Source: a virus
Length of the DNA: 64,000 bases
IMG/VR virus record: IMGVR_UViG_3300033145_001546
Location: 1 to 64,000 of that record
Strand: one strand, 5' to 3'
Shown: positions 21,054 through 24,798 of the stretch, in pieces
Position numbering within the stretch: position 1 is the stretch's first letter
Layout: each line of letters starts with the position of its first letter
The notes under the pieces: generated by a model
Seen by the model: the letters and a program-made list of their open reading frames with translations, nothing else
What the model was told of the DNA's origin: nothing
The model's database searches: none
Program-made: the position numbers and the translations under genes

Positions 21054-21835
21054 AATCCTATATCTCCTATATAACACCTAAAAACCAATAAACCTTATGC
21101 AAATGCAAACACCCGAAAAATTATTTTTTTTAATAAACCACCAAGTCTTTTCCCAAAATTTTCTCTATATATAACGAGTGGCCATAGATGCATATTAAAA
21201 ACTTTATATTCTGCATAAGTACCTAAGTCTTTTTTCGACTTCTCTATTCGATTCTATTATAGTACATGCACGTCCGAATTATTCGTTTTTCGGACCGTAT
21301 ATCGACTTTCCCCGAATTTCCGACCCTTCATCATCCTTTCTACCCCTATAGTCTCTTTTCCCTATTCTTACCTATCTTAAGTCCGATATACTCCGATTCC
21401 TTTTTTCCTTTTCCTTTTTCTTCTCTACCCGATTTTCTACTTACCTATCCCCCGGTTTTTTTTCCTACTTCTTCTATCCTATAAGTTTGCATGTCTTTCG
21501 GGTATCCTTACCTAAAATAAACTCATGCATGCCTTACTCTTATATCCTTTTATCGACTTTCGATTCTTACCGTCTCCCTTCGATTCTAATAGACTTTTTC
21601 GTTTATCCATGGTATAGTATCGGTCGGGCTCCGTTCGTCGATTCTCGTCGAAATCGCCTTTTCTCGGACGGTATAATCTACCCGGTCTTTTCGTCTTCGT
21701 CCGGGAATTCTCGTACTATAGCTTTATAAGCTTTCGGGTCGTATAGAAAAAAGCTATTTTCTTAAAGATTTTTCGGCCTTTTCGATACCGTAAAGGACGA
21801 TTTTCGTTTTTTATCATTTTTCTTAAAGATTTTAC

Positions 21836-21863
21836 TTTACTCGGACGATTAAAGTAGTATAAT
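21836..21863 (+). promoter_or_regulatory. Sigma70-like early promoter
   Basis: TTTACT-16 nt-TATAAT followed by CTATA, as in the promoter at 29068. Confidence 0.65.
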
Positions 21864-21870
21864 CTATATA

Positions 21871-22320
21871 GTCCGGGGGGTTTCCCGGACGGCTCTTTAA
21901 TACGCGAATATCGGCTTTAAGGTTTTTCGGGTTTCCCGGACGGTAGGATTTTCGGTCCGGTCCGGGAATTCGGAAAATCTAAAAGGGTCTTTTTACCGTA
22001 TCCGGGAAACCGATTTTTTCTTTCCGTTTACGACCGATAAGCTTTTATAACTAACCTCCGTTTTTCTTTTTAGGATTCTCGAAAAGGGTCCGGGACGTTT
22101 TCCGGACGGTCTATCCGAAAAGCGGAAAATAAGAAAAGGCGAATAACGGATAGTCGAAAGACGTCCGGAATTCCGAAAACGAAACGCCGATTTTATATCG
22201 GGGAAAAAACGGAATTCCGAACTATCGCGAAGACGAAGTAAGTCGCCGAAGAATATTCGACCGGCCCGGAAAGATATACGGTCCGGGGAAGGTTTTCGAT
22301 AACCTCCGGTCGATTCTTAT
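21871..22320 (+). ncRNA. Putative structured leader or ncRNA
   Basis: No ORF; several inverted repeats (GTCCGGG/CCCGGAC, GGTTTCCCGGACGGTA/TACCGTATCCGGGAAACC, CTATCCG/CGGATAG, GGAATTCCG/CGGAATTCC, CGACCGG/CCGGTCG). Confidence 0.45.
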
Positions 22321-22327
22321 TAGTAAT

Positions 22328-22734
22328 AGAAAATCGAAAACTTTACTTTAAGCGAAAGGGAAAGAAAAATGAAAACGAAAACGAAAATCGAAAACTATTT
22401 AGACGCTCTAAATTCTCTCGGTTTCGGAACGCCGTCTTCCGACGACGATTCCGGGACGATAATATTAGACTCCGGCGATATTATCGAATTATCGAAATTC
22501 GAGCGGGGCGGGAAGGTTTCGACCGAAGACCGAAAAGTCTCTTTTTATTTTTCCGGCGTCTCGGATCTTATCGAAATTCTCTCCGGCGGAAAAGTCGTAT
22601 ATACGACCGCCGGAGAGACCGACGAGTTTTAAGAGTCTATAAAATACGGTCCGAGAGAATCCGGACCGGTTTTTATACGCTTTTAAGAAAATCGAAAACT
22701 TTACTTTAAGCGAAAGGGAAAGAAAAATGAAAAC
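22328..22734 (+). repeat. 49-bp direct repeat (22328-22376 and 22686-22734) spanning the RBS and start codon
   Basis: AGAAAATCGAAAACTTTACTTTAAGCGAAAGGGAAAGAAAAATGAAAAC occurs twice. Confidence 0.9.
22369..22632 (+). CDS. Early hypothetical protein (acidic, 87 aa)
   Basis: GAAAGGGAAAGA RBS; no Q, H, W, C or internal M. Confidence 0.8.
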   Translation: MKTKTKIENYLDALNSLGFGTPSSDDDSGTIILDSGDIIELSKFERGGKVSTEDRKVSFYFSGVSDLIEILSGGKVVYTTAGETDEF

Positions 22735-22963
22735 CGAAAAAACGGAAAAACGAGTAGAGTCGATTCTCGGAAAGGAAGCTTCGATTCTTTTCGATTCGGA
22801 ATTCGAGAGGATGGGGATTTTCCAGGTAGAGAATTCCGATTCGGAAAACGAAAAGTTACTTTCGGAATTTCTCTCGGCGGTCGGAAAAACGGTTTCGGAA
22901 ATCGACCGGGAAATTCTAAAAGGAATTATAAAAGAAGAATTAACCTATATAAACTCCTTCTAA
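22727..22963 (+). CDS. Early hypothetical protein (78 aa)
   Basis: Same RBS cassette; Glu-rich. Confidence 0.8.
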   Translation: MKTEKTEKRVESILGKEASILFDSEFERMGIFQVENSDSENEKLLSEFLSAVGKTVSEIDREILKGIIKEELTYINSF

Positions 22964-23018
22964 TTCTCCTTTTCGAGTAAAAAGCCTATAGACTACCGGA
23001 CCCGAAAAGGGTCCGGGT

Positions 23019-23271
23019 CTCTATACGCTTTTAGAGTAACTCTATACGCTTTTCGAGTAACTCTATACGCTTTTCGAGTAACTCTATACGCTTTTCGAGT
23101 AAAAAGACGAATCGATTAAAGACGAATCGATTAAAGACGAATCGATTAAAGACGAATCGATTAAAGACGAATCGATTAAAGACGAATCGATTAAAGACGA
23201 ATCGATTAAAGACGAAAGACGAATCGATTAAAGACGAATCGATTAAAGACGAATCGATTAAAGACGAATCG
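23019..23271 (+). repeat. Tandem arrays: 4 x 21 bp CTCTATACGCTTTTCGAGTAA, then 10 full plus 2 partial x 15 bp AAAGACGAATCGATT
   Basis: Read directly from the sequence; no spacers. Confidence 0.95.
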
Positions 23272-23293
23272 TATATTTTAGAAAGGGAAAGAA

Positions 23294-23542
23294 ATGAGTA
23301 AAAGAAAAAGCGTAGACGAGAAAATCGGGAATTTACTTCTTTCGGAAATATCGAAAGTCGATTTACTTTTTTCGATGTATACCGAATATTCCGAAAAACC
23401 GGAGATGGAAAAGCGAATAATCGAAGCGATAGTAATATATAATTCGCTTCGGGAAAGAAATCTTATCCCGGAAAATTCGGACGTAGAAGACTATAAATCG
23501 GCTTTCCCGAATATAAAAATGATTCCCCTAATGGAGGTATAA
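23294..23542 (+). CDS. Early hypothetical protein (82 aa)
   Basis: RBS cassette; no Q, H, W or C. Confidence 0.8.
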   Translation: MSKRKSVDEKIGNLLLSEISKVDLLFSMYTEYSEKPEMEKRIIEAIVIYNSLRERNLIPENSDVEDYKSAFPNIKMIPLMEV

Positions 23543-23661
23543 AAAGCCTATAGACTACCGGACCTTCTCCGGGTCCGGGTCTCTATACGCTTTTAAGACG
23601 AACCGAATTAAAGACGAACCGATTAAAGAATAATTGAAACTATTTTAGAAAGGGAAAGAAG

Positions 23662-23862
23662 ATGGAAAACGAAAAAGCGAAAAAATTTGGAGTAAAATGC
23701 TATCGACATGCTTCCTCAATTTTCGGAGAGGCGACCCGCTGGGCGAAAAAAGCCGATGGAAACCGTATCGAATTCGATACGGTAGAAGAAGCGGAAAGAT
23801 ACGCCGAAAAAAGAAATAACAAAGGAATCTTAAATTGCGAGTATTTCTTTAGCCGAATCTAA
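23662..23862 (+). CDS. Early hypothetical protein (66 aa)
   Basis: RBS cassette; FDTVEEAERYA motif typical of small phage proteins. Confidence 0.75.
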   Translation: MENEKAKKFGVKCYRHASSIFGEATRWAKKADGNRIEFDTVEEAERYAEKRNNKGILNCEYFFSRI

Positions 23863-23915
23863 GCCACCGAAGTATAAAAAGCCTATAGACTACCGGACCT
23901 TCTCCGGGTCCGGGT

Positions 23916-24107
23916 CTCTATACGCTTTTCGAGTAACTCTATACGCTTTTCGAGTAACTCTATACGCTTTTCGAGTAACTCTATACGCTTTTCGAGTAAC
24001 TCTATACGCTTTTCGAGTAAGAAGACGAACCGATTAAAGACGAACCGATTAAAGACGAACCGATTAAAGACGAACCGATTAAAGACGAACCGATTAAAGA
24101 CGAACCG
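23916..24107 (+). repeat. Tandem arrays: 5 x 21-bp unit, then about 5 plus 1 partial x 15 bp AAAGACGAACCGATT
   Basis: Read directly; the 15-bp unit differs from the first array by one T>C change fixed across the copies. Confidence 0.95.
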
Positions 24108-24130
24108 TATATTTTAGAAAGGGAAAGAAG

Positions 24131-24451
24131 ATGAAAACGAAAGAGTTTATGAAATTAGTCGAAAAGGCGATGAAGAAAATCGAATCGGAAAACGTCGAAG
24201 AACTAATCGAAAAAGCCGAAGATTATTGGGAATCCGGTATAGCTATTCGATTTTCGCCGATGGATGAAGAAAATGAGACGGAAATCGACGGAGTATATTC
24301 CGAAGAGAAAATTGAATTCGAGCGGCTCCGATGGTTGGCTGCTGCTTGGGCTTCCGTACTTAAAACCCGAAAACTCTTAGAAGGTCATCCATCGGCGAAA
24401 TTAGACGAAATCGAAAACGACTTAAAAGGAGACTTAATAGACGTTCTTTAG
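24131..24451 (+). CDS. Early hypothetical acidic protein (106 aa)
   Basis: RBS cassette; Glu/Asp-rich. Confidence 0.8.
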   Translation: MKTKEFMKLVEKAMKKIESENVEELIEKAEDYWESGIAIRFSPMDEENETEIDGVYSEEKIEFERLRWLAAAWASVLKTRKLLEGHPSAKLDEIENDLKGDLIDVL

Positions 24452-24573
24452 AATAAGAGCCTATAGACTACCGGACCCGAAAAAGGTCCGGGTCTCTATA
24501 CGCTTTTAAGACGAACCGATTAAAGACGAACCGATTAAAGAATAATTGAAACTATTTTAGAAAGGGAAAGAAG

Positions 24574-24798
24574 ATGAAAGCACCGAAAAGTAGAATCATC
24601 AAAGAGGCAGCCGAAAAAGCCGGCATCCCGGTCGTGGTCGCAAAATTATCAGAGCACGTTCACCGAGTATTTCGCCCCAAAAGAGAATTGGGTCGATGCA
24701 CCTTTTGCGGGTCTACAGTTGTGATAATAAATGAAGAGTGGACTTGCCTGATGTGCCGCACTTCAGGGGATAAACCGAAAAGAGCACGCCGAATATAA
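24574..24798 (+). CDS. Small zinc-ribbon protein
   Basis: CTFC...CLMC; RBS cassette. Confidence 0.7.
   Translation: MKAPKSRIIKEAAEKAGIPVVVAKLSEHVHRVFRPKRELGRCTFCGSTVVIINEEWTCLMCRTSGDKPKRARRI

Follow-up and report, generated by a model that had tools for sequence, protein, structure and literature searches.

The locus and its features

The DNA analysed here (the window) comprises the first 64 kb of the 77,255-bp phage record IMGVR_UViG_3300033145_001546 in IMG/VR, whose whole genome is called G000, and the element under study is a zone at approximately 21.1-24.6 kb from which the dinucleotide CA and its complement TG are almost missing. The order and strands of the flanking genes place this zone at the divergence point between packaging and early genes. 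To its left terS, terL, the portal and head genes are encoded on the minus strand (PHROG and Pfam assignments), and to its right the plus strand encodes, in this order, a 287-aa protein, a MoxR-like ATPase, a DUF2201 vWA protein, a phage sigma factor, an SNF2 helicase, a primase, a DnaB-like helicase, a modification-like cluster, a clamp, an N6/N4 methyltransferase, a UDG-exonuclease with PolA, a clamp loader and a RecA-like protein. A nucleotide search with 20-26 kb gave no match in cultured phages, and the closest cultured TerL is 36% identical. The features of the zone, including its open reading frames (ORFs), and its immediate neighbours are as follows.

20322-21077, minus strand: terS, the small terminase gene (PHROG terminase small subunit, Pfam GP3_package/HTH), left neighbour of the zone, with normal CA/TG
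21078-21835, no strand assigned: transition and upstream part of the zone, pyrimidine-rich on the plus strand
21836-21863, plus strand: putative early promoter of sigma-70-like (host) type, TTTACT-N16-TATAAT, from a consensus scan, free of CA/TG
21864-22368, plus strand: 5' leader of ~500 nt, rich in CCGG and TCGA, lying within a 555-nt run free of CA/TG
22369-22632, plus strand: ORF1, 87 aa, acidic, with no His, Gln, Cys or Trp and no internal Met, its sole TG being that of the start codon
22727-22963, plus strand: ORF2, 78 aa, with 1 CA and 2 TG (start codon and one Met)
22983-23293, plus strand: spacer cassette with a hairpin, four 21-nt repeats (23019-23102), 11.8 copies of a 15-nt repeat (23103-23271) and a purine-rich ribosome-binding site, free of CA/TG
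23294-23542, plus strand: ORF3, 82 aa, with 0 CA and 5 TG, all in Met codons
23662-23862, plus strand: ORF4, 66 aa, partly purged (3 CA, 7 TG)
24131-24451, plus strand: ORF5, 106 aa, partly purged (2 CA, 13 TG)
24574-24798, plus strand: ORF6, the first gene with normal CA/TG (15 CA, 13 TG), marking the right edge of the zone

Further copies of the spacer cassette are present at 23547-23661, 23875-24130 and 24455-24573, and in front of each of the small ORFs there are a hairpin, tandem repeats of 21 and 15 nt and a ribosome-binding site rich in purines. None of these ORFs matched a PHROG family.

Depth and extent of the CA/TG depletion

The exact count in 21301-23630 was 8 CA and 13 TG, against 143 and 137 expected from base composition, which corresponds to an observed-to-expected ratio (O/E) of 0.075; the binomial probability of finding 21 such steps in 2330 nt is 1e-112. 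The initial annotation, which had reported about 21 steps in this interval and none over about 550 nt, was thus accurate on both points, the longest CA/TG-free run extending over 555 nt (21815 to 22370). Three more runs measure 472, 358 and 267 nt, compared with an expected maximum of ~66 nt, and the longest run in the genome lacking any control step is 95 nt. A 300-nt sliding window contains 0-2 CA/TG from ~21.6 to 23.3 kb and 35-50 elsewhere. The lowest 1-kb window holds 2 CA/TG versus 122 expected and lies 11 standard deviations under the 281 background 1-kb windows of the 77-kb genome (O/E mean 1.11, standard deviation 0.10, minimum 0.82). No comparable trough was found elsewhere in G000, as had been claimed. 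Masking of the tandem repeats, called with Tandem Repeats Finder, left the O/E of 21301-24573 at 0.15, far from the value near 1 that would have spoken against the depletion.

Among the other dinucleotides of 21301-23630, CG is enriched (O/E 2.27), in line with the initial annotation, GC is reduced (0.47) and TA is close to expectation (0.89). Restriction-type palindromes, namely GAATTC, AAGCTT, ATCGAT and TCCGGA, do occur inside the region, which had also been noted. Of the 21 surviving CA/TG steps 19 sit in CAT or ATG, again as first described. From 21816 to 23630 every TG belongs to an in-frame ATG, of which three are start codons and five encode internal Met, and the sole CA belongs to one Gln codon; the fully purged ORF1, ORF2 and ORF3 contain no His, Cys or Trp at all. 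The fade reported for the right-hand side proceeds gene by gene, through the partly purged ORF4 and ORF5 to the normal ORF6, while the intervening near-identical spacer cassettes are free of CA/TG.

In the non-coding part of the zone the two strands are purged to an equal degree. On the sense strand of ORF4 and ORF5 there are 5 CA versus 20 TG, compared with 172:139 in normal genes (p = 7e-4), an asymmetry that arises largely because Met, Trp and Cys codons are irreplaceable. These data support the claim of selection against the CA/TG step itself, already made in the initial annotation: coding as well as non-coding DNA is affected, on both strands, and only irreplaceable codons and a few motifs are spared.

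A narrower target for this selection would be TG-containing signals (stray starts ATG, GTG and TTG, the stop TGA, the -35 motif TTGACA, the extended -10), whose avoidance would prevent stray initiation within the leader. TG is part of every start codon, and the restriction of TG to in-frame ATGs over 21816-23630 is what this explanation predicts. We nevertheless regard it as very unlikely, since CA/TG was lost in all frames and on both strands, His, Cys and Trp were sacrificed, and the -35 motif of the real, conserved early promoter itself reads TTTACT instead of TTGACA.

The depleted zone in related phages

TerL of G000 has thousands of metagenomic relatives, and the loci compared below come from other assemblies and projects. 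A trough at the equivalent place, upstream of terS/terL, is present in L090 (TerL 86% identical, O/E 0.02), in L089 (86% identical, O/E 0.12, at a contig end), in L091 (80% identical, O/E 0.25) and in L052, which is part of the genome G001 (TerL 48% identical, O/E 0.27-0.5 over 2.9 kb). CG is raised ~2-fold or higher in all of them. Among the 66 TerL relatives whose upstream DNA spans 3 kb or more these four were the only ones with an O/E below 0.5. The search for the same trough next to terS in related phages, proposed in the initial annotation, was therefore positive, and the independently assembled relatives counter the chimeric assembly which it had considered. Given that four further assemblies, obtained in different projects, carry the trough at this position, the probability of an assembly or sequencing artefact is practically negligible.

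In the aligned relatives the promoter and the two ends of the leader are conserved; conservation does not extend to the small ORFs. The block AAAGATTTTACTTTACTCG..CGATTAAAGTAGTATA is invariant among G000, L090 and L091, and a similar block is found in G001. In L090 and L091 the purged DNA consists mostly of the upstream region, the promoter and the leader, and G000 has three to five added purged gene cassettes. The conserved sigma-70-like promoter (21836-21863, in three relatives) is predicted to head the plus-strand operon next to terS, which agrees with the proposal that this DNA is the first transcribed.

In G001 the late gene terS (O/E 0.51) and the spacer between terL and terS (0.56) are purged too, with a sharp boundary at terL (1.31). 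Since terS is purged and terL is not, the purge follows genome position and not one gene or transcript. The terL-terS interval of G001 also contains, at 21.5-22.1 kb (L052 9380-9970), ~600 bp of TA-rich direct repeats with units such as TATATACTATATATCCTAT, which are located exactly where the trough of that genome begins; it is possible that this repeat region is the genome end or the pac region.

These data bear on avoidance at the RNA level, in which early transcripts, both sense and antisense, would shun CA/UG so that a ribonuclease or RNA sensor does not recognise them. A single early transcription unit with a long leader makes up most of the zone, and the lower number of CA than TG on the sense strand of ORF4 and ORF5 could be taken as a trace of such avoidance, although most of that asymmetry comes from the irreplaceable codons. 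The purge of ~500 bp upstream of the promoter in G000, the inclusion of terS, a late gene on the opposite strand, in G001 and the equal purge of both strands in non-coding DNA make this explanation improbable.

The aligned relatives carry CG, TA, TT and TC alike in the place of CA/TG. This mixed spectrum, together with conservation of the zone in lineages with only 48% identical TerL, argues against a local mutational bias or hypermutation without selective purpose, e.g. of A to G at CA. The rise in CG is approximately that expected if half of the CA/TG steps had turned into CG, but the ORFs are intact, each with its ribosome-binding site, the Met codons are exactly in frame and functional palindromes survive, so the chance that mutation alone formed the zone appears slight; we know of no process that would confine such a bias to it. 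Hypermutation resembling repeat-induced point mutation was rejected as well, TA being not enriched and the reading frames being intact.

The G000 clade has the tail genes at 69691-71764 in common with G001, a hint that the trough-bearing lineages may have related hosts. In the presence/absence comparison no gene was exclusive to the trough-bearing genomes except the N6/N4 methyltransferase (also present in G004), a 128-aa orphan and the tail genes. Two other candidates for a trough were dismissed: the 265 nt of G007 that lack CA/TG belong to a tandem repeat encoding Asp/Pro, and a small dip in G004 is too weak to interpret.

Palindromes with CA or TG are exempt from avoidance

Outside the zone the genome has a normal CA/TG content and a strong deficit of palindromes. 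CTAG is absent from G000 against 150-287 expected, twenty 6-bp palindromes are wholly absent (TTTAAA, ATTAAT, TTCGAA, TCTAGA and AGATCT among them), and GATC and CGCG are present at ~0.27 of expectation. All the lost palindromes lack CA/TG. When a palindrome with at most one copy outside the trough was counted as lost, none of the 16 six-base palindromes with CA/TG was lost (minimum 6 copies) versus 27 of the 48 without, the median O/E outside the trough being 0.85 and 0.17, respectively (p = 1e-4). None of the 20 absent palindromes occurs inside the trough; three palindromes with a single outside copy also occur once inside.

This exemption was compared with the presence of a gene cluster located to the right of the zone.

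36346-42994, plus strand: candidate DNA-modification cluster encoding radical SAM A, a pyridoxal phosphate (PLP) enzyme, an intein-interrupted radical SAM B, a 238-aa protein of no assigned function and a GNAT/LPG_synthase_C-like transferase (Pfam/PHROG)
42991-43869: PAPS-reductase-like gene, following the candidate cluster

The cluster-bearing set consisted of 13 genomes, i.e. G000, G001, G003 and ten complete or near-complete IMG/VR genomes, and the pooled comparison was limited to palindromes expected at least 5 times. Eleven of 199 palindromes with CA/TG were lost in these genomes versus 183 of 500 without (p = 1e-19), whereas in eight TerL relatives without the cluster the losses were 25 of 124 and 73 of 319 (p = 0.6); the genomes compared are related, so that pooled p-values overstate independence, the direction still being consistent. 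In G002, devoid of the cluster, 9 of 16 palindromes with CA/TG and 22 of 39 without were lost. The per-genome ratio differs between cluster-bearing and cluster-less genomes (p = 0.01). No other dinucleotide class was exempt specifically in cluster-bearing genomes, AT-containing palindromes being spared in both groups. Presence of the cluster hence tracks the exemption of CA/TG palindromes from avoidance, which is weak in G018, G021 and G026, the cluster-bearing genomes that are most distant. Two phages with known modification at TG lean the same way: SH-Ab 15599 lost 0 of 16 palindromes with CA/TG versus 8 of 43 without, and F8 lost 1 of 15 versus 9 of 38. The simplest reading of these site statistics is that TG/CA-containing sites would be chemically shielded in phages with the cluster.

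The candidate modification cluster

The PLP enzyme belongs to the PALP family, and the Radical_SAM and PALP domains are encoded by adjacent genes. The AlphaFold model of radical SAM A (pLDDT 88.7) gave its best TM-score among the PDB hits, 0.53, with spore photoproduct lyase (SPL), and homologues of this protein are named 'DNA repair photolyase' by the Joint Genome Institute (JGI). The LPG_synthase_C-like/GNAT assignment comes from Pfam and the protein atlas. In uncultured phages 559 homologues were counted. The radical SAM protein had no BLAST-level match in cultured phages, similarity to the M6 protein itself was not seen, and PDB sequence searches with the radical SAM protein, the 238-aa protein and the GNAT protein gave nothing useful.

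The gene of radical SAM B is interrupted at 38363-40841 of the window. The N-terminal ORF there carries Hint/PT-HINT and DUF559 (endonuclease-like) domains, and the ORF that follows has an intein-splicing match at its start and then a Radical_SAM domain, an arrangement that suggests an intein, possibly a split one.

Comparison with known systems

TG is a known context of thymidine hypermodification. The alpha-dapT of Acinetobacter phage SH-Ab 15599 is found at TG, and likewise in PhiW-14 (PMC13458397); Pbunaviruses F8 and 14-1 carry a hypermodified thymine in the TG motif and are targets of END nucleases (PMC12191111); and a ParB-dependent phage thymine dioxygenase prefers NTG (PMC13229309). 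With PF12851 (Tet_JBP dioxygenase) neither G000 nor the control genomes gave a match. Phage M6 encodes an SPL-like radical SAM (gp53) with a PLP enzyme (gp52) (PMC8989533), and a pair of this type lies side by side in G000. The phage studied here resembles the TG-context phages (SH-Ab 15599, PhiW-14, F8, 14-1, M6, ViI) in the dinucleotide context and in restriction sites with CA/TG that, judged by their counts, may be protected; it differs from them in that no dUMP hydroxymethylase, no kinase of 5-hydroxymethyldeoxyuridine (5-hmdU) and no aGPT-Pplase were detected.

The GNAT-fold protein of the cluster, LPG_synthase_C-like and hence aminoacyl-tRNA transferase-like, recalls Mom of phage Mu, although the Pfam family differs. 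An adenine marked in CA would give the same double-stranded step; the reported context of Mom is, however, longer than a dinucleotide. Among known activities a bare dinucleotide is, to our knowledge, read only by DNA base-modifying enzymes. Mom itself is a GNAT that modifies adenine in DNA via Gly-tRNA (PMC13219725).

At window positions 46314-49425 a UDG domain is fused to a PolA 3'-5' exonuclease, and the polymerase domain is encoded by a separate ORF after a 177-aa protein of no assigned function. UDG-PolA fusions have been linked to phages with T-modified genomes, a group which also has thymidylate-synthase homologues (PMC13697223); G000 shares the fusion with this group but not the homologue.

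Motif-free first-injected regions include the first-step-transfer DNA of T5 and the leader of T7 with Ocr. Escape from restriction requires only that the first-injected region be motif-free, and in Murciavirus the early region sets the sensitivity to type I restriction (PMC12455610). The zone of G000 resembles the regions of T5, T7 and Murciavirus in being a block at the head of the early genes, adjoining the packaging genes, which lacks an element common elsewhere and encodes small orphan early proteins behind host-type promoters. The match is one of position and composition, and there are differences: a bare dinucleotide is missing in place of a 4-8 bp recognition site, the amino-acid content is reshaped by the purge, and the reader that is avoided is probably the phage's own modification system.

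Interpretation of the CA/TG-free zone

The reading that we favour, with a probability of about 0.5, is that the zone is kept free of CA/TG by selection and that the step is the probable site of the phage's protective DNA mark, so that the zone would be unmarked. The phage would then use two anti-restriction devices, shielding of sites with TG/CA and deletion of palindromes without it, and the zone, lacking TG/CA and nearly all the banned palindromes, would be both unmarked and nearly site-free. The TG/CA steps would be chemically marked after replication, likely by the radical-SAM/GNAT cluster (36.3-43.0 kb), and the unmarked zone would be the DNA used first after infection, perhaps also the first to enter, as its place beside terS may suggest.

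Two reasons for leaving this DNA unmarked may be envisaged. In the first, which we prefer, a host nuclease recognising the mark would have no target until the small early proteins are made; in the second, host RNA polymerase and regulators would be able to read the unmarked DNA. The first is preferred because the zone is defined by position, includes untranscribed and late-gene DNA and is patchy among relatives, because it is confined to lineages sharing the tail genes (the hint of related hosts), because nucleases targeting hypermodified genomes exist (PMC12191111), and because only the first-injected region must be clean (PMC12455610). The second fits the CA/TG-free promoter and the slightly stronger loss of CA than of TG in the sense strand of ORF4 and ORF5, but leaves unexplained why G012 and SH-Ab 15599 can do without a zone of this kind.

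A host activity may instead read unmodified CA/TG, either a nuclease or a dinucleotide-specific DNA-modifying defence enzyme, with the leading DNA escaping it and early inhibitors saving the rest. Such a reader would account for a zone that is set by position and adjoins terS, for its patchy distribution among lineages with common tail genes, suggestive of related hosts, and for the small acidic orphan ORFs inside it; proteins of this kind often act against defence. We know of no nuclease with two-base specificity. The host would have to protect its own DNA about every 8 bp, the remaining phage genome has a normal CA/TG content (O/E 1.1), and the specific sparing of CA/TG palindromes argues for protection at the step and not vulnerability; on balance, a host reader seems rather unlikely, even with the precedent of motif-free leading regions (PMC12455610). 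The initial annotation had attributed the purge to selection against a CA/TG-targeting activity. Selection on the step has stood up, but a host cutter is less likely than the phage's own TG/CA-directed modification, because the rest of the genome keeps normal CA/TG and eliminates only palindromes without it.

Several observations weigh against a phage mark at TG/CA of which the zone is kept free. No thymidylate-synthase homologue (a dUMP hydroxymethylase) was found with PF00303 in the 77-kb genome, the control genomes being positive, and neither a 5-hmdU kinase nor an aGPT-Pplase/amino-acid:DNA transferase appeared in Pfam/PHROG scans of ~60 ORFs, which included no model-by-model search; these results together suggest that the phage lies outside the canonical 5-hmdU pathway. 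If the cluster predicted the trough, all cluster-bearing genomes should have one, but it is present only in G000 and G001, and 11 cluster-bearing genomes are without it. G012 has the cluster and the same early gene module, yet the O/E of its homologous region is 1.02. The kinship of the pooled genomes, mentioned above, counts on the same side. The known TG-modifying phages would also be expected to have a trough, and the two that were checked lack a deep trough: in SH-Ab 15599 there is none at all (minimum 0.89), and F8 (DQ163917) exhibits at 50.5-51.3 kb a shallow, strand-specific dip (5-9 CA versus 22-27 TG per 500 nt, O/E 0.54-0.67), which means that a marked genome needs no mark-free zone.

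A more detailed version of the favoured reading can be offered only tentatively, at clearly lower odds. A new radical-SAM hypermodification, acting after replication, perhaps using aminoacyl-tRNA and requiring no 5-hmdU precursor, would mark TG/CA throughout the genome, and the G000 clade and G001 would have evolved an unmarked leader that hides the first-used DNA from mark-recognising nucleases until anti-defence proteins are made.

The new element of this work is the genome-wide palindrome test, which links CA/TG both to a protective mark and to one particular gene cluster and nominates the latter, found in hundreds of uncultured phages, as a new modification pathway. If the favoured reading is true, a dinucleotide-free zone and a set of exempted sites reveal from composition alone both the existence of a DNA mark in a phage and its sequence context, which would provide a sequence-only route to DNA-modifying phages in metagenomes. 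It would also suggest that protective marks are costly and that some phages meet this cost by recoding the genes used first, even at the loss of His, Cys and Trp.

Minor features of the zone

The few CA/TG steps that survive in 21078-21835 lie in TGCA/CATG-type palindromes, at 21098-21110, 21189, 21212, 21265-21270, 21488-21493, 21524-21531 and 21608-21611. Six to seven such palindromes (TGCATGCA, ATGCATTGCA) are spread over ~500 bp between terS and the early promoter and provide nearly the sole CA/TG there. Similar TGCATGCA / ATGCATTGCA motifs occupy the equivalent position in L090 (2000-2330, minus strand) and L091 (8560-8950, minus strand). They could be binding sites for TerS (pac), for a regulator or for the phage sigma factor.

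The conserved 5' and 3' blocks of the early leader contain CCGG-rich hairpins and have counterparts in L090 (1180-1560) and L091 (7770-8140), both on minus strands. The leader could be a structured RNA; a scan of the zone with Rfam gave nothing meaningful and no family for it. A terminator-like hairpin follows ORF1 at 22647-22668. The cassette hairpin gave 0 exact matches in IMG/VR.

The 15-nt tandem repeats fall into two families, one at 23103-23271 with ATCGAT in each unit and the other at 24022-24107 (5.7 copies) with ACCGAT instead. Elsewhere in the genome ATCGAT is under-represented (4 versus 19 expected). The repeat arrays look like iterons.

A second promoter-like site is located at 21648-21677. 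The phage encodes a sigma-70 region-2 protein at 29351-29884 of the window, which, with the host-type early promoter of the trough, implies that for later genes the phage sigma factor takes over from that of the host.

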